Origin: an uncultured archaeon
Lineage (GTDB): Archaea > Nanobdellota > Nanobdellia > Pacearchaeales > GW2011-AR1
Direction: 5' to 3'
Assembly: GCA_903873955.1 (NCBI GenBank)
Contig: CAIQQL010000042.1
Location: 1-44,099, forward strand
DNA length: 44,099 nt
The notes beneath the pieces were generated by a model. It made no database searches. It was not told where the DNA came from and saw only the letters and a list, made by a program, of their open reading frames with translations. The position numbers and the translations under genes are program-made. Positions 6,094 through 38,789 of the stretch are shown here, piece by piece (the stretch's first letter is position 1; every line of letters starts with the position of its first letter).

Positions 6094-7368
6094 ATGGAAA
6101 AATTCAAGTCCTTAGGACTTAGCGAGGCATTCCTTGCTGAAATTGTGAAAGCAAAGTTTACTGAACCCAGTGAGATTCAAGAAAAAACAATTCCTTTAGT
6201 GTTAGCTGGAAATGATGTCATCGGGGGTTCAGCGACAGGTTCTGGAAAAACACTGGCTTTCGGTGCAGGCATTATTGAAAAAGTTGAGAAAGGCCAAGGA
6301 TTACAATCACTTATTTTGACTCCTACCCGTGAACTTGCTGAGCAGATCACCACCGTTTTACGCACATTTTCTGCCTATAAAGGCCTGGATATTGCCTCCG
6401 TCTATGGTGGCGTAGGCATCAATCCCCAGATCAGGGCCCTTGAATACGCAGATATCGCAATTGCAACTCCTGGAAGAGTCCTTGACCATTTAGAACGTGG
6501 CACTATCAACCTCAGCAGAGTCAAAATCCTTGTCCTTGATGAAGCAGATCGCATGCTTGACATGGGCTTTATCGATGATGTAGAAAAGATCATCAAGCAT
6601 TGCCCTAAGGAACGTCAGACGCTCCTTTTTTCCGCAACAATCTCACAGGAGATCAGCCGTATGGCGCAGCATTACATGAAAAATCCTATAGAGATAAGCG
6701 TCACCCACTTTGTCGATCCTTCTAAATTGAAGCAAGTGTATTATGATACTCCAAAAGAGATCAAGTTCTCCTTGCTCGTTCATCTCCTTACCCAGGAAAG
6801 AACAGGGCTGGTCATGGTATTTTGTAACACGAGAGATAATGCTGATTTTGTCGCCAGACATCTTGGGCGTGAGGGCATTGATGCGATGTCCATCCATGGA
6901 GGATTGTCCCAGGAAAAACGAAACCACATCATGGAACTATTCCATGAAAACAAGAACGCACATGTCCTGGTATGCACGGATGTTGCCGCACGAGGTCTGG
7001 ACATCAAGGGCATCTCCCATGTCTATAATTATGATATTCCGAAAACAAGCGAAGAGTATATCCATCGTATCGGAAGGACGGCACGTGCTGGCAAGGACGG
7101 GATTGCAGTAAGCATCGTTGCTTCGAGAGATTACGAAAATTTCAGGCGTGTCCTTGAAGGCGATGGAATAAAAATTGAGTCGCTCCCAGTCCCAGAAGTC
7201 CGCAGAATATTCCTCAAAATAGAACCAAGAGGAAATTTTGGCGGGAACAGGTCCTTTGGTGGACGTTCTGGCGGAAGAAGTTTTAGGGGCGGATCTTCAC
7301 GAGGCGGGTCATCACATGGCAGGGCTGGCGGATCACGTGGATTTTCTAGAAGCACTTCTCGACGATAA
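6094..7368 (+). CDS. DEAD-box ATP-dependent RNA helicase with C-terminal RGG/RS-rich tail
   Basis: Q motif FTEPSEIQ, motif I SATGSGKT, Ia PTRELA, II VLDEADRM, III SAT, VI HRIGRTARAG. The tail reads GGNRSFGGRSGGRSFRGGSSRGGSSHGRAGGSRGFSR. Confidence 0.9.
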   Translation: MEKFKSLGLSEAFLAEIVKAKFTEPSEIQEKTIPLVLAGNDVIGGSATGSGKTLAFGAGIIEKVEKGQGLQSLILTPTRELAEQITTVLRTFSAYKGLDIASVYGGVGINPQIRALEYADIAIATPGRVLDHLERGTINLSRVKILVLDEADRMLDMGFIDDVEKIIKHCPKERQTLLFSATISQEISRMAQHYMKNPIEISVTHFVDPSKLKQVYYDTPKEIKFSLLVHLLTQERTGLVMVFCNTRDNADFVARHLGREGIDAMSIHGGLSQEKRNHIMELFHENKNAHVLVCTDVAARGLDIKGISHVYNYDIPKTSEEYIHRIGRTARAGKDGIAVSIVASRDYENFRRVLEGDGIKIESLPVPEVRRIFLKIEPRGNFGGNRSFGGRSGGRSFRGGSSRGGSSHGRAGGSRGFSRSTSRR

Positions 7369-23202: not shown

Positions 23203-24036
23203 TTACTCTTTTTGAAGCTCATAACCTTGATAGGGCATCTCCTTACCCTGATAGAGAACAAAGGGGTTGCCATCCGGATGGAATTTATCCTGATGCAAAG
23301 CAAATTCTCCATGAGATATCGCTCTGAGAGCAAAGCGTAGGGAAGGCCAGTCACTGCTTTCCTTCTGAAAATTTTGATGCTTGCCCGCCTCGTTTTGAGT
23401 TATAGGGCGGTCACCAGCATAGGCAATTGATGGTCCCGTGACCAGAATTGCACCAGCATCAGTCTCTGGATCTACCAAAATAATCGAAGACCTCGTCATT
23501 GTCTCACCGGCATGCAATGCGTCAAACACAGCATTTTCACCAATGTAGGTTCTTGAGCCGTCAGGATTAAGTTTTCCAAGATAAGCAGGATGGACATTGA
23601 TCGCACGGTTAGTAAACCTTCGTTGCAATGCTCCTTTGAATAACCTCATATACCCTGCTAGCAACGCCAAATCAAAAACGAAACCTTTTTCTTCCTCAAA
23701 CCCTGCCACCAATCGAAGCAGTTCATGATTATAGACCTGTGATTTCTGTTCATAGGCAACCCTCCCTTCAATGGTTTGCTGGGCAGTTTTCCAGCTCCCA
23801 CACCATTCAAGACCTGGAAGAGTACGGTGGGCAATCCCATATTCTTTGGCATATCTAATTGCACCGATAGTCTCGCCTTTCTTTGTTTCCTTGTCAGTCA
23901 CCAAAAGGTCGATAGAGAAATTACTGCCCGGTAACCTCGACTCCAAGACCGCTTCCCTAAAATTCGTCCCGCTGCCTGATGCGAATGCGACCACTCTCAT
24001 CGTGCCACGAGCCGGATCAAAGATCATTTCACCCAT
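23203..24036 (-). CDS. purN: phosphoribosylglycinamide formyltransferase (PurN-like) with a C-terminal extension
   Basis: VVAFASGSGTNF, LAGYMRL and INVHPAYL (with an insertion before the second half), then ILVDPETDAGAIL. I prefer ATG 24036, 1 nt after the TAA of the upstream gene, to the tracked GTG at 24075. Confidence 0.75.
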   Translation of the reverse strand: MGEMIFDPARGTMRVVAFASGSGTNFREAVLESRLPGSNFSIDLLVTDKETKKGETIGAIRYAKEYGIAHRTLPGLEWCGSWKTAQQTIEGRVAYEQKSQVYNHELLRLVAGFEEEKGFVFDLALLAGYMRLFKGALQRRFTNRAINVHPAYLGKLNPDGSRTYIGENAVFDALHAGETMTRSSIILVDPETDAGAILVTGPSIAYAGDRPITQNEAGKHQNFQKESSDWPSLRFALRAISHGEFALHQDKFHPDGNPFVLYQGKEMPYQGYELQKE

Positions 24037-24037
24037 C

Positions 24038-25999
24038 TTAAAAGGTAAGTTCGGGCTCTTTTGAAGAGCCGACACCTTTATTTTTGATTAGGATACCCGT
24101 TCTCTTTGTTATTTTTCCCGCACATCTGGCTTCGATGCCGTGCTCTTGCGCAAGTTTCAGCACTTTCTCGGGCTCAGGCGTGATGACCAGCATGCCGTTC
24201 CCCATATTCCAAGTCCTATATGCCTCAGCATCTTTGATATTCCCTAACTTTTGGCAGTGCAACATAATAGGGGCTGGCTCAAACAAGTCACCCAAATCAG
24301 CACCAAGACCGCTTGGCTTGAGAATCCTCCCCAGCTTCCCCGGAATGCCTCCGCCCGTTACATGCACAACCCCGTGAAGTTTCGCTTTCGCTTCTTTTGA
24401 GATCCCTCCATGCATATCCACAATTGCATTGCAGTAAATCTTTGAGGGTGTCAGTGCCAATTTACCAAGAGAATTGCCGTTAAAATCCGTCAAATGCCAG
24501 TCTTCTCCATAGGCTTGCTTAAAGACCTTCCTGGCCAGAGAAAGCCCATTGGACCTGAATCCTGCTTCCTTCAATGCAACAACAGCATCTCCTTCTTTTA
24601 TTTCAGACCCTGTGAACAACTTGCCCTTATTTGCAAACCAGACAAGACCCGCACCCCAGTTATAATGAAAGTCTCCAAACCCTCCAACCTGGGCCCCAAG
24701 CTCAGCGAGTTCGCCATTGATGATCGCTACATTCGCCGCTTTTGCAGCATCAACATATCCTCTGGCCAACTGGAGCATCTGGACAATCTTGGAGTTATCA
24801 TCAGAGCCCAACGAGTTTACATCTAAGATTGAACCGACGAGCACAGGTTCCCCGCCCCTGACTACCGCATCATCACACACCATCGCTAAAAGGTCAAATG
24901 CGATCGTACTATGGTCGTTTAGCCTTTCAGCTATCTCGACTTTGGTGCCAATGCCATCAAATCCTAAGCACATCATGGTCCCTGCTGGAAGCCCGCTCAC
25001 ATCAATCATCCTTAATCCCGAGAAATCATCAAAGGGGACAATGACCTCGCCAAGCAGACCTTTCCGGTTCTGCCAAGTCTGCTTTGCAGCATGATACAGG
25101 ATTTTGGATGCGTCATCTCCCAACTCAATGTTGACCCCCGCATCAGCATAACTAAGCGCATCATTCTTTAACTCCCTGGAAAGCATCGGATGCTCAAGGA
25201 CATAATTTACAGCATTACGAAAAAGAGTCAAGGCCGGTTCGTAAAACTCAGGGATCTCGCGATGCTGTCTTCTGAGACTTTCCCGGACATTATGAAAATC
25301 AGGGGCATTTGCAAAAAATAGGGCCCGTTCAGGATGAGGCATCATCCCCAGGATTCTCCCGCTTTTATCGCAGATCGCGGCAATATCACTTACAGACCCG
25401 TTAGGGTTGTAAGGAAAGACCCCATCTGCAAGATCCCCATTCTGCAGGGCATATCTGAACACAATCTGCTTATTTTCTGACAGTTCCTTGAGCACCTCGC
25501 TTGTCGCATAAAACTTGCCTTCGCCATGGGCCACAGGGACATGAAGGATATCAAGATTTTTTGCAAAGACGCTGAGGTCACTTTGTTTTTTCAGGTGCAC
25601 CCATCGGCATTCATACCTTGCAGAGTTGTTGAATGTCAATGCCACTTCCCTTTCCCCATAATTGTTCTTCAGGGCAGGCAAAAGACCGAGATTCACCAGT
25701 ATCTGAAAACCGTTGCAGATGCCAATAATCAGCTTTTCTGCCTCAATGAACTCCAGCAGTTCCTTAAAAATATTCAGTCGTATCTTATTTGCCATGGCGA
25801 TGCCTGAGCCCGTATCATCACCGTAAGAAAACCCTCCTGGAAACACAAGGACCTGATAATCCTTAAGACTCTTTTCCCCGTTGATCAGGTCATTGATATG
25901 AACGATATCCGCTTCTGCGCCAGCCAACTCAAAAGTGAACTTCGTCTCCCGTTCGCAATTAATGCCATATCCTGATAAGACTAACACTTTTGGTTTCAT
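24038..25999 (-). CDS. purQ-purM: fusion protein: FGAM synthase glutaminase (PurQ-like) N-terminal domain plus AIR synthetase (PurM) C-terminal domain
   Basis: The N-terminal ~280 aa carry the triad context GICNGFQ...HGEGKF...MPHPER. From about LSYADAGVNIELGDD onward the sequence follows PurM (FDGIGTKVEIAE...DLLAMVCDDAVVRGGEPV...HVTGGGIPGK). Confidence 0.85.
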   Translation of the reverse strand: MKPKVLVLSGYGINCERETKFTFELAGAEADIVHINDLINGEKSLKDYQVLVFPGGFSYGDDTGSGIAMANKIRLNIFKELLEFIEAEKLIIGICNGFQILVNLGLLPALKNNYGEREVALTFNNSARYECRWVHLKKQSDLSVFAKNLDILHVPVAHGEGKFYATSEVLKELSENKQIVFRYALQNGDLADGVFPYNPNGSVSDIAAICDKSGRILGMMPHPERALFFANAPDFHNVRESLRRQHREIPEFYEPALTLFRNAVNYVLEHPMLSRELKNDALSYADAGVNIELGDDASKILYHAAKQTWQNRKGLLGEVIVPFDDFSGLRMIDVSGLPAGTMMCLGFDGIGTKVEIAERLNDHSTIAFDLLAMVCDDAVVRGGEPVLVGSILDVNSLGSDDNSKIVQMLQLARGYVDAAKAANVAIINGELAELGAQVGGFGDFHYNWGAGLVWFANKGKLFTGSEIKEGDAVVALKEAGFRSNGLSLARKVFKQAYGEDWHLTDFNGNSLGKLALTPSKIYCNAIVDMHGGISKEAKAKLHGVVHVTGGGIPGKLGRILKPSGLGADLGDLFEPAPIMLHCQKLGNIKDAEAYRTWNMGNGMLVITPEPEKVLKLAQEHGIEARCAGKITKRTGILIKNKGVGSSKEPELTF

Positions 26000-28977
26000 G
26001 CAAAACTCCTAAACCTTCGTTTGTAATGCTTTTCAAGCTCACCAACGTCGGTCTGCACAATCTTCGCTCCAGAAAGTCCCTGGATGATGAAGTCTCCAGA
26101 GATCACTTTACCGATTTTTGAAAATCCGGCATGGGCAAAGATACTTTCAAACTCCTTTTCCGATTCCGGAGCAACACTCACCAAGATTCGCGATTGGCTT
26201 TCACTGAAGAGAAGCGCATCATCCCGGTCCGCATCCCCGCTCCGTTTCATTTTAGCAAGATCCACTAATGCCCCGAGTTCTCCGGCGATACACATCTTGG
26301 CCAAAGCGATACCCAATCCTCCAGAATTCACAGGTATGCTGCTTGCTATGATCCCTTTATCAACTGCTTTGCTAAATTCAGAATAAAGTTCGACCGCCTT
26401 GCCGGCATTGACCTTAGGGACCTTGTTCCCGATGTAAGGCTTGCCCGTATTCTCTTTCCCAGCAAAATCAAAATATTCACTTGCCCCCAGCTCGTTTTTT
26501 GTTTCTCCCAGAAGATACAAGGTGTCCCCAGCATATTTTGCGTCAAGAGAAACTGTCTTTCGATAGTCTTCGATAACACCCAGAGAAGAGATAAGCAAGG
26601 TAGGCAGCACTGAAATCTTCACTGCATTTCCAAGTTCATCAAATCCTTTGAAATCATTAAACATACTGTCTTTGCCAGAGATGAAGGGAGTTTTGTACGC
26701 CAAGGCATAGTCATAACAAGCCTTTGCGGCAGCCTTGAGTTCACCAAGCCTTCCAGGTTCATCAGAACTGCACCAACAAAAATTGTCCAAGAGCGCCAGT
26801 TTTTGCAGATCTCCGCCTGCCGCAATTACATTCTTAATCGCGGTGTCGATTGCACAAGCAGCCATATGATACGGATTGATGAGGCTATACCTTGCGTTAA
26901 TTCCCTGGCTTGCGATAACTGCCTTCTTTGAATCTAAAAGAGGCCTTATTGCCGTCGTATAGGCATTGACCTCCCCTTTTCCTTGCACGGGCTTGAGAAT
27001 AGAACCTCCCTGGACCTCATGGTCATACTGCCTGGAGATAAAGGAAAAACTGGCAAGATTATGCTGTCTTAGCATCCCCAGCAAACTTGAAGTCAGGTTT
27101 GGAGGACAAGAAAAGGCAGGCTCATCATTCCAGGCCTTGGTTGTGATTGATTTGAGTTTCTTTTTAGGGACCCCGTCATGCAAGAACATCATGTCCAGGT
27201 CCAATATTTTTTTATTGTCATAGTTCACTACAGCCCTCCTAGATTCATTGAACTCTCCAATGATTGTTGCCTCAACACCCCGCTTTTCCATCAACTTCAG
27301 GAATTCGTCAGACTTTTCCTTAGGCACAGATAAAGTCATCCTTTCCTGCGACTCACTCACCCACATTTCCCAGAGTTGGATACCTGCATATTTTACCGGC
27401 ACTTTCTCCAAATCAACGACAAAACCTCCACATTCACGCGCCATCTCTGCGACAGAACATGACAGCCCACCTGCCCCATTATCAGTTATACTGTTATAGA
27501 GAACCGCATCTCTTGCTTCCTTGACAAGAGCATCACTCATCTTTTTTTGGGTGATTGGATCCCCAATCTGCACCGCAGTAGCGGGGCTTCCCGAGTCAAG
27601 TGCCTCTGATGAAAATGTAGCCCCGTGTATCCCATCTTTGCCTACCCTGCCACCTACAACAACAATATAGTCTCCTGCTTGCGCCTTCTTGAGATGCCCT
27701 TGAGTCCCTGCAATAGTTCGAGGTATAAGCCCCGCAGTACCTACAAAAACCAGCGGCTTGCCTTTATAGCTGTCATCAAAATAAACAAAGCCCTGTGGAG
27801 TCGGGATTCCTGAACAATTGCCACCGACCTTTACTCCATCGATGACTCCTTCCATGATCCTTAAGGGAGAAAGCGCAGGGTTGGTCTTATTTTTCCCTCT
27901 ATAGAGAATGCTCTTGTCTTCAGGATAACCAAAACAAAACCCGTACCGATTCATGATAGGGAGCGCCCCCTGACCAAAACCGATGGCATCCCTATTCACC
28001 CCGACAATGCCTGTGATTGAACCTCCAAAAGGATCAAGTGCAGAAGGGCTGTTATGGGTCTCCACTTTGTCAGTCACCAGATAGTGCTCATCAAAGATGA
28101 TCCCTCCCGAATTATCTTCAAAAACCGAGACGCAGAAATCGCGATCCCCCTTCATGGCCCGAATCTTGTTTGTGGCGTTTCTGATATAGGTCTTAAATAT
28201 CCCCTCCTTCAGTTCATCAAGCTCATTTGCAAAGATAGTATGCTTGCAATGTTCGCTCCATGTCTGGGCTATCGATTCCAGTTCAATGTCAAAAGGCATC
28301 CTCCTTTCTTCCTTCAAGAAATATTCCCGTATCACTTTCATGGACTCAAGGTCAAGAGCTAACGGACCTCTTCTTGAGCCATCAGCATTCATGATGCCTT
28401 GCTTGCCTATCTTGCTCAGCTCCTCATCACTCACCTCGAGATTAACCGTCTCAACAGCAGGAAGATCGAGGAGTTTAACTCGCGGGACAATATAGCTCAT
28501 GCCCTTCTCTTTCAGATATCTTTCCCGGCTTTTAATTGAAATACGGTTGATGAGTCCATTTGCCAACTGGTTTGCGATCTGTATTGTCTGGGGTTCGGTC
28601 AAGGTTCCTGTTACCAAGAACAGCTGCGAGCTAAAGACAGTTCCCTTCTCAAGACTCAAACGAAACAGATCAACAATCCCTTCCTGTACTGTGTTTGCTA
28701 TGTTATCCGTAACACCTGGAAGAAAACCAATCTCAATCGCCCAATCAGCTTTCATCTCCGTCGGAGCATCAATGATGAAGCGCTGTGTTATTGGATTTGC
28801 AAGCATCTGCGCGATGAATCGTAGTTGCTCTGGAGAAAAATCGTAATCAATGGTATATACCTCAACCACCTGGACATCAAGGATTTTTTCAGTTATCCCG
28901 AATGTGAGCATCTCTTTCTTTTTAACGCCGGCTCTCGCATCAGGGATTCTCGAAGAAATTTCTATCCGATGAGCCAT
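25996..28977 (-). CDS. purL: FGAM synthase, large-type N-terminal (PurS-like) domain plus synthetase domain, lacking the glutaminase domain
   Basis: 993 aa. PurL blocks ETHNSPSALDPFGGSITG, DNGAGGLS, ESQERM and GGLG are present. About 200 aa N-terminal to the synthetase core resemble the PurS-like/linker region of large PurL. ATGA overlap with purQ-purM. Confidence 0.88.
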   Translation of the reverse strand: MAHRIEISSRIPDARAGVKKKEMLTFGITEKILDVQVVEVYTIDYDFSPEQLRFIAQMLANPITQRFIIDAPTEMKADWAIEIGFLPGVTDNIANTVQEGIVDLFRLSLEKGTVFSSQLFLVTGTLTEPQTIQIANQLANGLINRISIKSRERYLKEKGMSYIVPRVKLLDLPAVETVNLEVSDEELSKIGKQGIMNADGSRRGPLALDLESMKVIREYFLKEERRMPFDIELESIAQTWSEHCKHTIFANELDELKEGIFKTYIRNATNKIRAMKGDRDFCVSVFEDNSGGIIFDEHYLVTDKVETHNSPSALDPFGGSITGIVGVNRDAIGFGQGALPIMNRYGFCFGYPEDKSILYRGKNKTNPALSPLRIMEGVIDGVKVGGNCSGIPTPQGFVYFDDSYKGKPLVFVGTAGLIPRTIAGTQGHLKKAQAGDYIVVVGGRVGKDGIHGATFSSEALDSGSPATAVQIGDPITQKKMSDALVKEARDAVLYNSITDNGAGGLSCSVAEMARECGGFVVDLEKVPVKYAGIQLWEMWVSESQERMTLSVPKEKSDEFLKLMEKRGVEATIIGEFNESRRAVVNYDNKKILDLDMMFLHDGVPKKKLKSITTKAWNDEPAFSCPPNLTSSLLGMLRQHNLASFSFISRQYDHEVQGGSILKPVQGKGEVNAYTTAIRPLLDSKKAVIASQGINARYSLINPYHMAACAIDTAIKNVIAAGGDLQKLALLDNFCWCSSDEPGRLGELKAAAKACYDYALAYKTPFISGKDSMFNDFKGFDELGNAVKISVLPTLLISSLGVIEDYRKTVSLDAKYAGDTLYLLGETKNELGASEYFDFAGKENTGKPYIGNKVPKVNAGKAVELYSEFSKAVDKGIIASSIPVNSGGLGIALAKMCIAGELGALVDLAKMKRSGDADRDDALLFSESQSRILVSVAPESEKEFESIFAHAGFSKIGKVISGDFIIQGLSGAKIVQTDVGELEKHYKRRFRSFA

Positions 28978-29005: not shown

Positions 29006-29178
29006 GATTTCTATGATTCAATCATCCATTTTATTTATCACTTTGATTGGATGAACTAACCGCCAGAGGAGGAGAAAACCCTCTCAAAAACCATTTATCC
29101 GTGATGCAGAAGAATTAATAACATCTTCCTTACAGGGCTCCCACCTTCTTTTATTATTGTTGTAGAAATTTCTTCAAC

Positions 29179-29190
29179 TTTTATTCAAAT
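29179..29190 (+). promoter_or_regulatory. candidate TATA box for the HD-rSAM-kinase operon
   Basis: TTTTATTCAAAT is centred about 28 nt upstream of ATG 29214. Confidence 0.3.
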
Positions 29191-29213
29191 AGGGTCTCAC
29201 CTCAGACACGCTG

Positions 29214-29711
29214 ATGAAAGAAGAAGACCTGAGCTACATAAGAAAAGCCCACCAGGAGCATCCAAAAAAAGCAAACAAAGCCTATCGAAAATGGGATGGC
29301 AAGACCCCCTACTACACCCATCCCCTCTGGTGTGCAACGACCATCCTCACTGAGACCTCACTCGATGAAACCACCCGAAATGAGGGCGCTCAGGTCCTTC
29401 TTTATCATGACCTCTTGGAGGATACTACCTTCGACCTCCCTTCAACACTCGAAGAGAGAGTACGAGAGCTCATCAAGGAAATGACTTTTGCAGGAGGAAG
29501 CGTAGAAGAAATGCAGAAGATATGGGAAAGACCTGCGGTGATCAGGCTTTACAAACTCTATGATAAAGTCAGTAATCTTCTGGATGGTTCTTGGATGCCA
29601 GAACAAAAAAGGCAAAGATACGAAACATACACTCAAGCACTGTGCAAGGATGTTGAAAGAAACTACGGAACACTCAACATAACTAAGATTGCACGAGGCA
29701 TCCTTAAATGA
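29214..29711 (+). CDS. small HD-domain hydrolase of the SpoT/Mesh1 ((p)ppGpp-hydrolase-type) family
   Basis: YTHPLWCATTIL...AQVLLYHDLLEDT...IRLYKLYDKVSNL parallels the RelA/SpoT hydrolase pattern HPl.VA.iL...AALLHDvvEDT...ilIKLADRLHNm. 165 aa, with no synthetase domain. Confidence 0.65.
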   Translation: MKEEDLSYIRKAHQEHPKKANKAYRKWDGKTPYYTHPLWCATTILTETSLDETTRNEGAQVLLYHDLLEDTTFDLPSTLEERVRELIKEMTFAGGSVEEMQKIWERPAVIRLYKLYDKVSNLLDGSWMPEQKRQRYETYTQALCKDVERNYGTLNITKIARGILK

Positions 29712-30577
29712 CTTATTCTGCCCTAACTCATACCTTCTCCCATAAACAGGCAGGAAATGGATTTTTTACTATCGCGCTCCAGTTTACTAGAACCTGCAAT
29801 TATCGATGCAGCCATTGCAGCGAGAGTAGCCCTCTGGAAAGTCTACCCACTAAACAGGTATACAAAATCATAGACAACCTTGCCCATGCAGGAATCAAAC
29901 GCGTGAATATTTCAGGAGGTGAGCCTACCTTGAGAGAAGACTGGTTAGACCTTATAGACTACATATCTCAAAAAAAATTGTATTCGAGCCTTGCCACGAA
30001 CTGCTCAACAATTACACCGCAGACCTTACAAGCATTACGGGGGAAAATATCAAATCTGCGCGTGAGCATCTATGGAAATGAAAGGACCCACGAGGCAATT
30101 ACAACAGTCCCCGGTAGTTTTCAAAGGACCAGAGAGACAGCGAAAAAAAGCCAGGAGATAGGAATTCCAACCTATGCCTGTATGACTGTAATGCAAGACA
30201 ACCTGGAACAAATAGCAGAGGTCAGGAACATATGCAGGGAAGTCGGTATGGAAAAGCTGTTGCTATATTCTTTGGTTCCCAAGGGCAGAGGCTCCGAGAT
30301 ATATCCGTCTCAAAGAGTATCAAAAGAGCAGGTCCAAACCCAGATCTCGAAAATCGCTCCAGACACACCGGAGATTTACTGGTCTCCTTTTGAGGATGAT
30401 GGAATTTGCGCCCTTATTCAGGCAGATGGCTCGTTGGTAGCAACACCCTATCAAGGTGAACCCTCGAGGATTAAACTAGTAGGCTGGCCCCTCAAAGAAA
30501 GCTTGACCGAACTCTGGGAAAAGTATCCTTTTAAGGAAAATTATCTCGCTTTCAACAAGGAGAAGATGAAATGCTAA
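29708..30577 (+). CDS. radical SAM enzyme (no obvious auxiliary-cluster domain)
   Basis: FTRTCNYRCSHC (CxxxCxxC), GGEP SAM-binding motif VNISGGEPTL, and later LLLYSLVPKGRG and LIQADGSLVATPY blocks. ATGA overlap with the HD gene. Confidence 0.8.
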   Translation: MTYSALTHTFSHKQAGNGFFTIALQFTRTCNYRCSHCSESSPLESLPTKQVYKIIDNLAHAGIKRVNISGGEPTLREDWLDLIDYISQKKLYSSLATNCSTITPQTLQALRGKISNLRVSIYGNERTHEAITTVPGSFQRTRETAKKSQEIGIPTYACMTVMQDNLEQIAEVRNICREVGMEKLLLYSLVPKGRGSEIYPSQRVSKEQVQTQISKIAPDTPEIYWSPFEDDGICALIQADGSLVATPYQGEPSRIKLVGWPLKESLTELWEKYPFKENYLAFNKEKMKC

Positions 30578-31428
30578 CCTCGGAGGAGACAAAGAAGATA
30601 GTTAACGAGGGTAGACTAACACGACTTTGTTGCAAGGTAGACCGCTTAGGAGCCTCATCATCCAGAGTCACTTACTCATCCGATTTTCAAAATAAAAAAT
30701 ACAAATTACGAAAATGCTTGGGTGCCGAAGATGCAAAAGCGATTGAGGAACGAGTGAAAGAGATAGCCCATCTAGGAGTCTCCCCCCATTACCTTGGACG
30801 CGACTTGGAATGGCTTTGTTTCGATTATTTGAGTCTCAGAGAGGCACAAAGAGAAGAATCACCTGCTTTTTGGGAGCATCTGGGAGGAAGCCTTGCTTTG
30901 CTGGAGTCAATACCTTCAAAAAAAGTAGATATCGCATTTACCGCATATCGAAGGCCGATAGAAGCAAAGGAATTTAGTGCCTATATCTTTCGTGCTGCTG
31001 AAGAGATCTCGAAAAAATCATACCTCGATAAAAAGGAAGTCCAAGCATTAAAGAATCGATTTGCCTACCTTCTTTCAAAAGGAGTCTCACATTGCATGGG
31101 ATATCTAGACTTGCTTCCCGGCAATGTCTTAGTGGATCAGGAGAAGAGCATCATCATTGATGAAGAGGGGTTTGCCCAGACTATAAAGGGTCTAAGCCTG
31201 ATCAGACCGATGAACATCTGGAAAGGTCAACCTCCTCACCAAGAACTTAGAGGGAATGTACGTGAGAGCTTCCTTAAAGGATATGCATTAAAGGGTGGCG
31301 ATAGAGCATATTATGAAGAACATGAACAGAATCTCGGAACAGTATATTACACCCTGAAGGCATACGCAAGCATTGTTGAAAGCGGATCGTCCCATCGCTC
31401 AGTTGCCTGGCTTAAGAACCTCCTCTAA
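30571..31428 (+). CDS. protein-kinase-like fold phosphotransferase (APH/ChoK/Kdo-like)
   Basis: Candidate ATP-lysine KYKLRKC, catalytic-loop-like GYLDLLPGNVLVD (D....N) and metal-binding IIDEEGF. The ATG lies 7 nt inside the rSAM 3' end, with AAGGAG upstream. Confidence 0.5.
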   Translation: MLTSEETKKIVNEGRLTRLCCKVDRLGASSSRVTYSSDFQNKKYKLRKCLGAEDAKAIEERVKEIAHLGVSPHYLGRDLEWLCFDYLSLREAQREESPAFWEHLGGSLALLESIPSKKVDIAFTAYRRPIEAKEFSAYIFRAAEEISKKSYLDKKEVQALKNRFAYLLSKGVSHCMGYLDLLPGNVLVDQEKSIIIDEEGFAQTIKGLSLIRPMNIWKGQPPHQELRGNVRESFLKGYALKGGDRAYYEEHEQNLGTVYYTLKAYASIVESGSSHRSVAWLKNLL

Positions 31429-31437
31429 CTTTTTTGA

Positions 31438-31965
31438 TCAGACAAGCGACTTCCAGTTCTCTTTATAGTACTGAAACTTTTTATTGAATTCCTCTTTAGG
31501 AGTCAGATTGATTTTAAGGGAACTAAGTTTCTGTTTCAACAAATCCACTTCTTTCTCCTTTGTGTCTTCAGAGCACATCTTCTCAAGTTCAATAATATAA
31601 CCATACCCTTTTGTGTAATCCAGACAAACGGTGATCCCTTCCCAGGCAAACTCAAAACGTTTCCTAAACCATTTTATCTCAACAGTGTACCCCAAAGCAA
31701 GAAACAGTTTCTCAAGATTTTCAAAATCCTCCTTATCGAACTTGACCTCTATCTCTTCTCTATGCTCATCGTGAATCTTGCCTTTTTTCATCCAGATCTT
31801 TGCATAAAAATTGTTCCTCTGGATTCTAAGGTCCTCATCGCCATCAAAGTAGAACGTTTCCTGATAGTCCTCTTTAGAAAGTTTCGCATGGCTTTTAAAA
31901 AATTCAATCAACGAAGCATATTGTTCTCGGGTGATAAAGCTCCTTACCTCTGCTTCAATATTCAT
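31438..31965 (-). CDS. CYTH-domain protein (triphosphate tunnel metalloenzyme; CyaB/ThTPase-like)
   Basis: N-terminal NIEAEVRSF (ExExK/R-type signature), EIEVKF, and C-terminal VCLDYTKGYGYIIELEKM (v.lD.v.glG.fvEiE). Confidence 0.7.
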   Translation of the reverse strand: MNIEAEVRSFITREQYASLIEFFKSHAKLSKEDYQETFYFDGDEDLRIQRNNFYAKIWMKKGKIHDEHREEIEVKFDKEDFENLEKLFLALGYTVEIKWFRKRFEFAWEGITVCLDYTKGYGYIIELEKMCSEDTKEKEVDLLKQKLSSLKINLTPKEEFNKKFQYYKENWKSLV

Positions 31966-32033: not shown

Positions 32034-32474
32034 TTACTTTTCCAGAAACCGTTTTTTCAATACGTCGAGCTCAACCTTTGGAATTTCTTTAAAGACGTCC
32101 TTCTCAAAAATCTGACTTTTTTCATACAGCTCGTCAAAAAGCGCACGAGGTTGCAGATGGACATGCAGGTGATGTACTTTTAGCTTGTCCTCTTTTTGAA
32201 ATGGCCGATAATTTATTCGGACGTCGCATCCTGATGCGATTTTATCCAAGATTTGTTGCTGGAACTCAATAACCGTATCGAAGAGTTCTTGCTGTTCAAT
32301 AGAGGTCAACTCCTTCAGTCTTTCAACATGCCGTTTAGGCACGACCAAAAGGTGACCTGGCATCAAACGAGGGTTACTGAATATGACCCTCACAGTTTCC
32401 CCTTCTTTTAAAGTCCGCGTTATTTCCAAATTGAGATCACAAAAAGGACAGCCCATACATGCAACAGGATACAT
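32034..32474 (-). CDS. HIT-family (histidine triad) nucleotide hydrolase/transferase
   Basis: N-terminal CPFC, LLVVPKRH and the histidine triad HHLHVHLQP. Confidence 0.8.
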   Translation of the reverse strand: MYPVACMGCPFCDLNLEITRTLKEGETVRVIFSNPRLMPGHLLVVPKRHVERLKELTSIEQQELFDTVIEFQQQILDKIASGCDVRINYRPFQKEDKLKVHHLHVHLQPRALFDELYEKSQIFEKDVFKEIPKVELDVLKKRFLEK

Positions 32475-32591: not shown

Positions 32592-34394
32592 ATGTTAAAA
32601 AACAGAAGAATAGATGAATTTATCACAACGATCATTGTCTTGAGTTTAATCTTAGTGGCATTAGTTTTCAGTTATGCACTCTCAAACTATCCCGTGGGTC
32701 AGCTGATGCTCATAGCCGCAATCTTTGTCGGTTCCTTAGAACTGATCAAAATCACCTGGGAAAATCTTATGCACAGGAGATACAGCATCGATTATATCGC
32801 CATTTTGGCAATTACCATCGCATTATTGACACAGGAGTATCTTGCAGGATCAGTCATCGTATTGATGCTCTCAGGAGGCAATGCCCTTGAGAGATATGCC
32901 TCAAAAAAGGCAAGAGAATCATTGACAAAGCTGACACAAAGGATACCGAATGAGGTGTTCTTGTTTGAAAACGGAAAGGTGGGTGAAAAAGTAGCCATAA
33001 ATGATGTGAGGATTGGAAACCGCATCTTGATACGAAGAGGAGAAGTTATCCCGCTTGACGGGATATTACTTTCAGAAACTTCAAGAGCGGATGAGTCCTC
33101 CTTGACAGGAGAACCATTCTTAATAGACAAGGTGAACGGAGACCTTATCCGAAGCGGGACAATAAATGTTGGACCCCCGATGGTCATCAGAGTTATAAAA
33201 GAAAACCGCGATTCAACATACACCAAAATCATTGAAATGGTCAAGAAAGCCCAAGAAGAGAAGCCCAGGCTCGTACGACTTGCATCAAAATATAATATCC
33301 TGTTTACAATCGTCACTTTGCTTATTGCATTACTCACCTACCTGTTCAGCCATGACTACAAAAATGTCTTGGCAGTATTGGTTATTGCAACCCCTTGTCC
33401 GTTAATATTAGCCACACCTATCGCATTGATTGGAGGTATGAATTCAGCCGCGAAAAGGAAAATCATCATCAAACGGCTCTCAAGTCTCGAGGTGTTATCC
33501 AGGGTAGATGCATTGATATTTGACAAGACAGGCACTCTAACCTTGGGAAAACCACAGTTGATTTCAATAGAGCTGAAGAATACTAAACTGAAGGAAAAAG
33601 ATATCCTTGCTCTCGCTGCTGCAATAGAGCATAACTCATTACATCCTATCGCCAAGTCCATAGTCCATGCTGCACGATTAGCCCGAGTTAAAAAGTTAAA
33701 GGTTACACAGATAGAGGAGATAATCGGCTCGCACATTGCAGGAGCAATCAATGGAAAGAGGTACATCTTAATCAAACCAATAAACCATCATCGAGCATCC
33801 CTGGAGGTTTATGAGGAAACCAAAGGAAAACGAACGCTTCTGGCAGCGATGTATTTTGAAGACAAATTGAAAAATGACACCAAGAAGATCATAACTGAGC
33901 TTAGCAATGATGATTTGATTATGAAGATCCTTACGGGAGATAAAAATGAAACAACAAAAGCATTGGTTGAAAAAATATCAAAAAATATCGATTGGAAGGC
34001 TGAATGCACACCGGAGGATAAACAAAAAGAGATTGACACGTTAAGGTCAGAAGGACATATTGTGGCCATGGTTGGAGATGGGATCAACGATGCACCGGCG
34101 CTCGCCAAAGCTGATGTCGGGCTCGTCTTCAGTCATGAAGACAGAACTGCCGCTTCGGAAGCTGCAGATGTGGTCTTTTTAGGAGGAGATTTTTCAAGTG
34201 TTTACGATGCATTGAAGATCTCGAAACAAACCGTAAAAATTGCAAAGCAAAGCATCCTAGTCGGCATTAGCTTAAGCACGATAGGCATGCTTTTTGCCGC
34301 ATTTGGTTTTATCGTGCCCATTGCAGGAGCATTTATCCAGGAAGCGATTGACATCGCAGTCATTTTTAATTCATTAAGAACGAGCAGGTATTGA
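32592..34394 (+). CDS. P1B-type heavy-metal P-type ATPase with a PCP transmembrane motif and no N-terminal metal-binding domain
   Basis: TGEP (SSLTGEPF), phosphorylation site DKTGTLT, ILTGDK and GDGINDAPAL. The TM metal motif is ATPCPLILATP. The protein ends right after the last TM. Confidence 0.85.
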   Translation: MLKNRRIDEFITTIIVLSLILVALVFSYALSNYPVGQLMLIAAIFVGSLELIKITWENLMHRRYSIDYIAILAITIALLTQEYLAGSVIVLMLSGGNALERYASKKARESLTKLTQRIPNEVFLFENGKVGEKVAINDVRIGNRILIRRGEVIPLDGILLSETSRADESSLTGEPFLIDKVNGDLIRSGTINVGPPMVIRVIKENRDSTYTKIIEMVKKAQEEKPRLVRLASKYNILFTIVTLLIALLTYLFSHDYKNVLAVLVIATPCPLILATPIALIGGMNSAAKRKIIIKRLSSLEVLSRVDALIFDKTGTLTLGKPQLISIELKNTKLKEKDILALAAAIEHNSLHPIAKSIVHAARLARVKKLKVTQIEEIIGSHIAGAINGKRYILIKPINHHRASLEVYEETKGKRTLLAAMYFEDKLKNDTKKIITELSNDDLIMKILTGDKNETTKALVEKISKNIDWKAECTPEDKQKEIDTLRSEGHIVAMVGDGINDAPALAKADVGLVFSHEDRTAASEAADVVFLGGDFSSVYDALKISKQTVKIAKQSILVGISLSTIGMLFAAFGFIVPIAGAFIQEAIDIAVIFNSLRTSRY

Positions 34395-37496: not shown

Positions 37497-38789
37497 ATGG
37501 TGAGGATTGTAGTGGTTGATTCCGGTGCGAGGGGCAATGCCCTATTGTACGCTTATGCCCATAGCTTAAAGGAGTCCCAACAACCCTTTGAAGGATTAGT
37601 TCTCGGTTCGCTATGCGCATCCCGTGAGGATTATGTTGACCTTGGCAATAAAGAGCAGGTATTAGACAGAATACTCAGGTATAACCCTGATCTGGTCGAT
37701 GTTGCACAGGATGAGGCACTTGCCTCGGGATTGGTCGATACACTGCGAGAAAGAGGCGTTAAGGTCTTTGGCCCAACAAAGAAAGCTTCAAGAATCGAGT
37801 GGGATAAACTTTGGGCCCGAGATTTCATGAACCGACATCAGATCCCCACTCCAAGATATGCTTCTTTTGGCCATGCGCAAGAAGCCCAAGCGCGAGAATA
37901 TGCTTTACGCTTAATCGCTGAAGGGAAAAAAATATTTTTTAAAGCCGCAGGATTATGTGCGGGAAAGGGCGTGGTCGGAGCCTCAACCAAATTGGAAGTT
38001 GAAGCAGCCATCAGAACAATGCAAGAGAGAGGGGCCGCATCGCAGGTCTATCTTATTGAAGAAGGCATCATCGGTGAAGAGTTTTCATACTTTGCCATTG
38101 CCGATGGGAAGAGCTTTCATTGCTTTAGGTCCGCACAAGACAATAAACGCATCTATGATGGAGACAACGGTCCAAACACTGGAGGTATGGGAGCACACTG
38201 TCCGGCATTGATCACTAAGGGAATAGATAAGAGGATCATCGATACCATCATCCGCCCAACTTTCCAAGGGCTTGCCCAAGAAGGAACGCCCTACACAGGG
38301 ATATTATATCTAGGAGGCATTGTAACTTCAAGCGAAGAAATAAACGTCATTGAGTTTAATTCTCGCTGGGGAGATCCGGAATGCCTGGTCGTTCTTCCAG
38401 GGATCAAAACCAATTATTTCGAACTCATAACCAAAACAATTGAGGGAAGGCTGTCAGAGATGCATCCTGAAGAAGATAGCCTGTTCAGGGTAGCGATAGT
38501 TGGTGCATCCCGAGGGTATCCAGATGCCTATGAGAAAGGGAAAAGAATCACTTTTGATTCAGGAAAATTTCCAAAGCAGTGCTGGATAGTTCCAGCCGCA
38601 GTAGTTGAAAGAGACGGCGCGCAGTATACCAACGGGGGCAGATTGTTCAGTGTAGTTGCTCAGGGAGAAAACTTGCGGGAAGCCCAAAAAATCGCTCTTC
38701 AAGGAATGTCCTGCTTTGCAGTAGAAGGGAACGGGTTGCATTTCAGAAAAGACATAGGATATCGAGATTTAAATCGGAATAAGAATTGA
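37497..38789 (+). CDS. purD: phosphoribosylamine-glycine ligase
   Basis: MVRIVVVDSGARGNAL, an ATP-grasp core (KAAGLCAGKGV, EEFSYF) and IEFNSRWGDPE. Confidence 0.9.
   Translation: MVRIVVVDSGARGNALLYAYAHSLKESQQPFEGLVLGSLCASREDYVDLGNKEQVLDRILRYNPDLVDVAQDEALASGLVDTLRERGVKVFGPTKKASRIEWDKLWARDFMNRHQIPTPRYASFGHAQEAQAREYALRLIAEGKKIFFKAAGLCAGKGVVGASTKLEVEAAIRTMQERGAASQVYLIEEGIIGEEFSYFAIADGKSFHCFRSAQDNKRIYDGDNGPNTGGMGAHCPALITKGIDKRIIDTIIRPTFQGLAQEGTPYTGILYLGGIVTSSEEINVIEFNSRWGDPECLVVLPGIKTNYFELITKTIEGRLSEMHPEEDSLFRVAIVGASRGYPDAYEKGKRITFDSGKFPKQCWIVPAAVVERDGAQYTNGGRLFSVVAQGENLREAQKIALQGMSCFAVEGNGLHFRKDIGYRDLNRNKN

Follow-up and report, generated by a model that had tools for sequence, protein, structure and literature searches.

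A radical SAM-kinase gene pair with interchangeable phosphohydrolase partners: a proposed small-molecule or nucleotide modification operon in a few DPANN archaea

Some prokaryotic viperins (pVips) are encoded next to nucleotide kinases, and these partner kinases display the P-loop nucleoside monophosphate (NMP) kinase fold. Kinase-primed deoxygenation is known from gentamicin biosynthesis, where GenP is a kinase of the APH fold, and the route to cordycepin passes via a 3'-AMP intermediate. The roles of the individual genes of the cordycepin cluster, Cns1-3, have been described (PMC10710699). In oxetanocin A biosynthesis an HD phosphohydrolase, OxsA, and a radical S-adenosylmethionine (rSAM) enzyme, OxsB, act together on dAMP, dADP and dATP (PMC7074753). 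Here we analyze a stretch of 44,099 nucleotides (nt) from an uncultured archaeon of the Pacearchaeales (contig CAIQQL010000042.1; hereinafter the window), which contains an operon of three overlapping open reading frames (ORFs) respectively encoding an HD hydrolase, an rSAM enzyme and a kinase. An earlier note on this DNA, made from the sequence, had singled out these genes as a triad. We found no paper in the literature on this gene combination, and the system is uncharacterized, without a match among the known defence systems and housekeeping families.

The module is probably an rSAM-centred small-molecule or nucleotide modification operon, which is found only in a few DPANN (Nanoarchaeota/Woesearchaeota-type) archaea and whose conserved functional unit, as comparison with related loci shows, is the co-diverging rSAM-kinase pair and not the triad. 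The operon and its candidate expression signals are as follows:

29214 to 29711, forward strand: ORF1, HD hydrolase of 165 amino acids (aa)
29708 to 30577, forward strand: ORF2, rSAM enzyme of 289 aa, a core component
30571 to 31428, forward strand: ORF3, kinase of 285 aa, a core component
29180 to 29191, forward strand: TATA-like A/T-rich element TTTATTCAAATA, a candidate archaeal promoter by sequence reading
31430 to 31437, forward strand: T-run CTTTTTTG after the kinase stop codon, by the same reading a likely archaeal terminator

Homologues of all three products occur elsewhere at 35-66% identity, and hence these ORFs are genes and not chance reading frames. Direct reading of the junctions bore out the three overlapping ORFs on one strand reported earlier: the ORF1/ORF2 junction is AAATGACT, with an ATGA overlap of 4 nt at 29708-29711, and the ORF2/ORF3 junction is ATGAAATGCTAACC, with a 7-nt overlap, ATGCTAA, at 30571-30577 and a GGAG 7 nt upstream of the ORF3 start. 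The rSAM enzyme and the kinase are made together from overlapping genes, with translational coupling via the 7-nt overlap; the three products might also be made at a fixed stoichiometry, as the earlier note supposed.

Relatives of the core proteins are rare. We recovered 12 relatives of the rSAM enzyme among 5.8 billion protein clusters and 10 of the kinase, and a profile search run without filters over 1.84 billion representatives returned only 7 close kinase relatives. Their named sources are Nanoarchaeota or Woesearchaeota metagenome-assembled genomes, together with one contig binned as Verrucomicrobiota, which is probably misbinned. L014, L023 and L027 were the only loci gained by scanning genome, metagenome and viral contigs; the metagenome and viral scans yielded no locus of a new kind, and the viral scan no copy of the pair. 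For the comparison of gene-neighborhoods we used ten lineages, in which W denotes the window copy and the L numbers denote related loci. The rSAM and kinase genes are adjacent in nine of these (W, L001, L003-5, L006/13/22, L007-9, L010/26, L011, L014 and L023), the exception being L012, which has the most divergent rSAM, and they overlap by 1-19 nt in seven of the nine. The pairwise identities of the two proteins are also correlated (r = 0.84 over 36 pairs). The tight coupling of genes pointed out earlier is thus conserved for the rSAM-kinase pair. The proposal of a conserved three-gene neighborhood did not survive, as only this pair is constant across the lineages: the HD gene is part of the operon in two of the ten lineages and lies nearby in two others, a PHP gene is found instead in two, and in the rest the HD gene is missing from the stretch examined. 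In the L010 locus (a 233-kb contig) the kinase gene is frameshifted at 6600-6900, such that a different frame encodes its N-terminal ~20 residues, with a start that overlaps the rSAM stop codon; the locus has either been misassembled or become a pseudogene.

ORF2 scores 70.1 bits against the radical SAM profile PF04055 (threshold 29.5; E-value 3.3e-19), and both its cluster motif, C30-X3-C34-X2-C37, and the SGGEP sequence, which contains the SAM-binding GGE motif, are invariant in the family alignment, confirming its identification as a radical SAM enzyme. It also lies outside the known housekeeping families, as all 72 of its NCBIfam matches are 3- to 7-fold below their cut-offs; the best of these, namely NirJ1, AhbD, NirJ2 and TIGR04053, reach ~95 bits against cut-offs of 395-650, and we accordingly do not place it in any curated family. 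Its closest sequences in the PDB are those of SkfB (79.5 bits with the family profile), followed by MoaA, BlsE, PqqE and the viperins. In Foldseek searches with the AlphaFold2 (AF2) model of ORF2 (predicted local distance difference test score, pLDDT, 85), SkfB is again recovered with the best E-value (2e-17). The same model matches the viperins 6q2p, 9dfw and 9dgw over ~285 columns with template modelling (TM) scores of 0.78-0.81 (TMq) and 0.77-0.82 (TMt) and a root mean square deviation of ~3 Å, and the viperins that are thus matched over the full length of the model are CTP-bound. On the strength of the model this match, which includes the C-terminal extension, is to be seen as resemblance and not as membership of the viperin family. 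Against the NCBIfam viperin model NF038283 ORF2 reaches 54.6 bits, with a cut-off of 180, and that over residues 22-122 only; a profile-profile comparison with a viperin alignment gives a probability of 97.9%, with confident alignment restricted to the N-terminal ~100 residues. Within this region both share the motifs FTRxCNYxCxxC and (K/R)xNxSGGEP, the latter of which contributes triphosphate contacts in viperin and MoaA. R65, N67 and S69 of ORF2 align with the K-I-N-F-S motif of viperin, and the C-terminal half cannot be reliably aligned.

Enzymes of the SPASM/twitch group are recognized by the pattern CX9-15GX4C...CX2CX5CX3C...C, which binds one or two auxiliary clusters (PMC6231123). ORF2 retains the twitch β-hairpin with a threonine in place of the post-hairpin cysteine (C234...G241-X4-T246) and lacks the CX2CX5CX3C motif. 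The earlier statement that it has no auxiliary-cluster cysteines is therefore right with respect to the SPASM motif but not established as a whole, since there are three further invariant cysteines (C158, C176 and C234) and a C-terminal cysteine in 10 of 12 sequences. These make an unconventional second metal (auxiliary) site possible. In sum, the rSAM core of ORF2 is derived from the SPASM/twitch type, its twitch hairpin is degenerate, and its fold as a whole is viperin-like. Its residues 1-20 (29708-29770) form a conserved extension before the cluster motif, with Y3, H8, T9 and F10 ('Y.P.THTF'), which is predicted to be disordered (pLDDT <50) and could be a partner- or substrate-binding lid.

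ORF3 is predicted to be a small-molecule kinase of the ChoK/APH/FN3K fold and a divergent outlier within this clan. Its AF2 model (pLDDT 90) recovers ethanolamine/choline kinases, homoserine kinase II, APH(9), FN3K and macrolide 2'-phosphotransferases as the top Foldseek matches (E-value ~1e-9, TM score ~0.6), and its score against Pfam APH is 18.8 bits, just under the threshold of 23.2. The fold and motifs that characterize the APH/choline-kinase families (PF01636/PF01633) are all present: the catalytic loop GYLD180LLPGN185 and the metal site D197-E-E-G are invariant, K45 in β3 is nearly so, and the glycine-rich LGASS loop is conserved. The kinase-like fold with its D....N loop and IDEE metal site, as first read from the letters, is in agreement with these results. 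Distant relatives of ORF3 are fused to GT4 glycosyltransferases; no locus was found for the nearest outgroup kinase (P0027), from which its genomic context could have been read.

ORF1 is predicted from its sequence to be a stand-alone hydrolase of the RelA/SpoT/Mesh1 type of HD domains, resembling the small alarmone hydrolases. A family profile built from its six members matches only Mesh1, MESH1/HDDC3 and Rel among PDB sequences, with E-values from 5e-6 to 2e-4: Drosophila Mesh1 (3nqw, 5e-6), human MESH1/HDDC3 (3nr1, 5vxa) and the HD domain of Rel (8acu, 6yxa). The alignments to these Mesh1/Rel structures cover the entire protein. A single-sequence search of the PDB likewise retrieves RelA (5xnx, 7.8e-5), as well as HDDC3 and MESH1. 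The match to NCBIfam spoT_relA has an E-value of 1.7e-4 at only 20 bits, and no Pfam family, HD_4 included, matches ORF1. Across the six sequences R25, H36, H65-D66, E69-D70, D117 and N121 are invariant and align with the equivalent positions of Mesh1 and MESH1, so that the RSH (RelA/SpoT homologue) hydrolase motifs R...PY..HP, HD, ED and D...N are all present. The motifs RKWDGKTPYYTHP, LLYHDLLEDT and LYKLYDKVSNL, on which the earlier note had relied, are likewise invariant in the family alignment, and its assignment of ORF1 to the (p)ppGpp-hydrolase/Mesh1 family, as against generic HD domains, is upheld by the catalytic residues and by the restriction of the profile matches to Mesh1 and Rel. 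The Mesh1/RSH lineage of HD domains also acts on other 2'/3'-phosphorylated nucleotides, such as NADPH (MESH1) and pppApp, and to our knowledge (p)ppGpp signalling is not established in archaea. In these organisms RSH proteins are sporadic and RSH hydrolases are rare (PMC3153485).

The position directly upstream of the rSAM gene emerges as an interchangeable slot. An RSH-type HD gene overlaps the rSAM start in W and L006/13/22, lies 1-2 kb downstream of the pair, behind a TrmB-family regulator, in L003-5 and L023, and is replaced by a generic HD gene in L014. In L011, and as a fragment in L027, a PHP phosphoesterase occupies the overlapping slot; the best NCBIfam match of this PHP protein is the 3',5'-nucleoside bisphosphate phosphatase (169 bits, E-value 9e-50, below the cut-off), followed by PhnPP and RNase RNM. 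Both the RSH-type HD and the PHP families take phosphate off nucleotides at the 3'(2') position of the ribose, and the HD protein is a facultative partner, one of several interchangeable phosphohydrolases coupled to the pair. Where it occurs without the pair, it is coupled to uracil phosphoribosyltransferase (UPRTase), a generic HD protein, purine or uridine phosphorylase, AAA_28, CYTH and the same TrmB regulator.

The wider gene-neighborhoods point in a similar direction. CYTH proteins belonging to three subfamilies are encoded within a few genes of the pair in six lineages (W, L001, L003, L011, L014 and L023), in one case as a fusion to an AAA_28 kinase, and a nucleoside diphosphate kinase (NDK) gene precedes the cluster in L001. 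A TrmB regulator flanks the pair in five other lineages; in the window it was looked for and not found. The genes around the pair overwhelmingly belong to nucleotide and phosphate metabolism, which fits a nucleotide-like substrate.

Several further features of these loci deserve mention. The TrmB proteins of L001 (7849-8565) and L019 (9277-9999) are 81% identical and are preceded by different modules, namely a 386-aa rSAM, the rSAM and the kinase in L001 and UPRTase with two HD proteins in L019, while NDK and the same CYTH subfamily lie upstream in both; this looks like a variable slot inside a conserved frame. A second, larger rSAM of 386-412 aa, which is ~24% identical to ORF2 and not assigned to a family, is encoded at L001:4813-5973, directly upstream of the pair, and at L006:5320-6558. 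A second conserved operon of three overlapping genes near the pair (L001:1-3071, L007:5322-8531) encodes a B12-binding rSAM of ~455 aa, whose best match is HpnJ-like and far under the cut-off, a flavoprotein resembling dihydroorotate dehydrogenase (113 bits, with a cut-off of 269) and an uncharacterized protein of ~338 aa. In L014 (10557-12570), after the TrmB gene by the pair, there is an operon for a generic HD protein of 278 aa, a CYTH protein of 209 aa and a protein of 180 aa similar to the 2TM effectors of Pycsar and CBASS systems (35.5 bits against Pfam PycTM, above the cut-off, and 45.5 bits against the PADLOC 2TM effector). This class IV cyclase-like CYTH protein and the 2TM effector might together form a defence system of the Pycsar kind, based on cyclic nucleotides and a non-canonical cyclase.

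Based on these observations we tentatively propose, with a confidence that stops short of even, that the module phosphorylates, radically transforms and then dephosphorylates a nucleoside- or nucleotide-like small molecule. The kinase would use ATP to phosphorylate a hydroxyl, most plausibly the 2'- or 3'-OH of a ribose. The rSAM enzyme would then abstract a hydrogen from the same molecule and rearrange it or eliminate a group. Finally, a phosphohydrolase, which would be the Mesh1/SpoT-type HD protein in the window and the PHP protein resembling 3',5'-bisphosphate nucleotidases in other lineages, would remove the ribose-linked phosphate, thereby either finishing the product or undoing the priming. 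In this scheme the class of substrate, the sequence of the steps and their biological role are inferred. A nucleotide-like substrate is best supported because HD and PHP are both 3'(2')-phosphate removers, because the neighbors include CYTH, NDK, AAA_28 and purine/pyrimidine genes, and because ORF2 has a viperin-like fold and motifs. The earlier note had likewise suggested phosphorylation, radical modification and dephosphorylation of a nucleotide-like substrate, and of this the chemistry accords with the folds and the nucleotide-gene neighborhood, while the triad on which it was built is not the unit.

A number of observations weigh against this proposal. Neither the rSAM enzyme nor the kinase reaches a curated family, and the sequence of the former places it nearer to SkfB, NirJ and AhbD, which modify peptides and tetrapyrroles, than to viperin and MoaA. 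Its TM score with the viperins may be due mainly to the equal size of the proteins, and confident alignment with viperin is confined to the N-terminal ~100 residues. The GT4 fusions of the distant kinase relatives would be in keeping with a sugar or a glycan as the substrate. In about half of the lineages the HD gene is missing from the stretches examined; it also occurs apart from the pair, and its coupling in the window could be due to gene packing in a compact genome. The CYTH neighbors are not orthologous to one another, and three of the six lineages that have them, L003, L014 and L023, share synteny and so are not independent. Finally, all related loci come from metagenome bins and represent only ~10 lineages.

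The most likely of the alternatives, though we consider it unlikely, is that the substrate of the pair is not a nucleotide but some other small molecule or a glycan, for example a sugar, a sugar-nucleotide, a cofactor or a tetrapyrrole. The HD, CYTH and purine genes would then adjoin the pair only by genome compactness, and the triad would partly be a packing artefact. The affinity of the rSAM enzyme to NirJ/AhbD- and SkfB-type proteins, the presence of the sugar-modifying DesII and BlsE among its fold and sequence matches, the GT4-fused kinase relatives, and the choline, ethanolamine, fructosamine and aminoglycoside kinases among the structural neighbors of ORF3 are all in line with such an activity, as is the independent occurrence of the HD gene. 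Against this reading, two types of ribose-phosphate phosphohydrolase overlap the rSAM start in four lineages, and nucleotide-handling genes are found repeatedly near the pair in most lineages. Moreover, glycan or tetrapyrrole genes do not recur by the pair in the loci examined, a comparison that covers loci with the pair, those without it not having been checked.

Rather improbable, in our estimate, is a viperin-analogous antiviral or conflict system, which would convert a nucleotide to a chain-terminating or toxic analogue, for instance a 3'-deoxy or didehydro form. Here the kinase-primed 3'-O-phosphate would be the leaving group for a C4' radical, and HD or PHP would serve as a safeguard or a finishing step; GenP and the cordycepin enzymes Cns3/Cns2 (PMC10710699 for the gene roles) offer precedents for kinase-primed deoxygenation. 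The full-length match of the ORF2 model to viperins and the shared N-terminal motifs are compatible with this idea, and so are the patchy distribution of the pair, its variable genomic contexts and the different modules found before the same TrmB gene in the related genomes L001 and L019. Conflict-type neighbors are also seen, namely CYTH followed by the 2TM/PycTM effector in L014, Hypoth_Ymh in L003 and a DNA methyltransferase in L007. Nevertheless, PADLOC-DB 2.0 recognizes no system in the window, the HD protein and the kinase having no significant match, and an antiviral role, as entertained in the earlier note, gains nothing from that check. The pVip match of ORF2 (68 bits) proved generic and was discarded as evidence for a viperin, as the same model gives 49.5 bits for an unrelated rSAM of L001, and the NCBIfam viperin score is well below its cut-off. 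The window copy lies among purine-biosynthesis genes and not in a defence island, there is neither a viral-contig copy nor a sign of mobility, and its GC content is that of the surroundings. In its most specific form this idea would make the module a DPANN-specific counterpart of viperin, in which the kinase phosphorylates the ribose 3'-OH of a nucleotide, the rSAM enzyme generates a radical at the adjacent carbon such that phosphate and not water is expelled to yield a 3'-deoxy/didehydro chain terminator directed against viruses or hosts, and the HD or PHP 3'-phosphatase acts as a built-in safeguard; this we regard as slightly more doubtful still.

Given that the best sequence and Foldseek E-values of ORF2 are to the sactipeptide maturase SkfB, and that kinase-fold enzymes take part in some pathways for peptides that are made on the ribosome and modified after translation (RiPPs), we also considered maturation of a RiPP by an SkfB-like rSAM and a peptide-phosphorylating kinase. 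This is very improbable, as against it ORF2 has neither a RiPP-recognition element nor the SPASM/twitch cysteine set and is of viperin size and not of maturase size, and no conserved small ORF accompanies the pair, the flanking intergenic spaces being 0-400 nt and unconserved. A (p)ppGpp or alarmone signalling module deserves next to no credence despite the RSH hydrolase lineage and intact catalytic residues of the HD protein, since nothing points to such signalling as such: no synthetase (small alarmone synthetase, SAS, or RSH) was found in the window or any locus, the HD protein is dispensable for the pair, its lineage has the other 2'/3'-phosphorylated nucleotide substrates mentioned above, and RSH proteins are sporadic in archaea (PMC3153485).

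In the window the operon is divergent to purL, from which ORF1 is separated by an intergenic spacer of 236 bp. The center of TTTATTCAAATA is ~29 nt upstream of the ORF1 ATG within this spacer, a spacing that suggests a leaderless or short-leader mRNA. The single TATA-like element described earlier is thus present, but it is not unique, as there is a second A/T-rich candidate at 29150-29158, and because of this and of the A+T content of the DNA (57%) the sequence evidence for a promoter upstream of ORF1 is weak. At the other end a T6 run is found 3' of the ORF3 stop codon. The GC content of the operon equals that of its surroundings, and tRNA and Rfam scans of the window found no element. Two genes on the opposite strand follow the operon:

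31438 to 31965, reverse strand: CYTH protein (triphosphate tunnel metalloenzyme, CyaB-like; Pfam CYTH, 1.9e-8)
32034 to 32474, reverse strand: HIT-family nucleotide hydrolase/transferase (Pfam HIT, 2.6e-8), encoded upstream of the CYTH protein

The CYTH gene is convergent with the operon, lying 10 nt past the kinase stop codon, and is a possible associate of it; its product reaches 40 bits against NCBIfam cyaB (cut-off 58) and matches 1yem and 2een among PDB sequences. We also considered it as an orthologue of the CYTH neighbors in the related loci, which it is not. The HIT gene has no counterpart in the related loci examined and is given for context only. Between it and an ORF of 285 aa for a winged-helix-like protein lies an ORF of 600 aa (32592-34394), which by eye seems to encode a P-type (heavy-metal-type) ATPase, with the sequences DKTGT and GDGxND, and to stand apart from the operon. 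On the larger scale purN-like, purQ-purM and purL genes lie before the window copy and purD lies after it. These genes of de novo purine biosynthesis, at 23203-28977 and 37497-38789, comprise a purN-like formyltransferase, a purQ-purM-like gene, purL and purD; the purQ-purM-like product is a 653-aa fusion of GATase_5 to AIRS/AIRS_C, whose gene overlaps that of the 993-aa purL by 4 nt. Purine synthesis is commonly described as lacking in DPANN archaea.

Given the tiny genomes and the host dependence of DPANN archaea, a conserved rSAM-centred accessory module is unexpected in them; its use is probably in the handling of nucleotides or in conflict. If our proposal of a nucleotide-modifying module is true, it would represent a new route to modified nucleotides, in which a kinase-primed radical transformation is combined with a dedicated 3'-phosphatase, and would for the first time place the RSH/Mesh1-type hydrolases of archaea in a functional context. 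As the core proteins are small and confidently modelled, with intact active sites, the hypothesis is directly testable in vitro.

Compared with the described systems, the module combines elements of several. ORF1 agrees with Mesh1 and the small alarmone hydrolases (PMC3153485) in being a single HD domain of ~165-180 aa with the R...HP, HD, ED and D...N motifs. Unlike these, it comes from DPANN archaea, is too divergent for Pfam and has no synthetase partner that we could find, and the genes of its family are accompanied either by those for nucleotide salvage or by the rSAM-kinase pair. ORF2 has its closest sequence relatives in the SPASM/twitch enzymes (SkfB, PqqE, NirJ/AhbD, MoaA and BtrN; PMC6231123), whose twitch β-hairpin it retains, but it is without the seven-cysteine SPASM motif, has T246 in place of a cysteine and is 100-150 aa shorter. 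With viperin and the pVips it shares a length of ~290 aa, a partial TIM barrel with a cluster-free C-terminal extension (TM scores of 0.78-0.82), the N-terminal motifs and a location next to a kinase among nucleotide genes. In contrast to them it descends by sequence from the SPASM type, is only 14-18% identical, with the C-terminal half unaligned, and is partnered by a kinase of the ChoK/APH fold in place of the P-loop NMP kinase fold. As in the window, OxsA and OxsB are an HD phosphohydrolase and an rSAM enzyme that are encoded together, their substrate is a phosphorylated nucleoside and the HD protein removes phosphates. However, OxsB is cobalamin-dependent, OxsA is a generic HD protein, no kinase is involved and the system is bacterial, and no sequence relation closer than that of the superfamilies was detected. 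The cordycepin enzymes Cns1-3 and GenP belong to fungal or actinobacterial secondary metabolism and include no radical SAM enzyme. Their likeness to the module is in logic alone: a sugar hydroxyl is phosphorylated and thereafter eliminated or transformed, and a metal-dependent phosphohydrolase takes part in the pathway.

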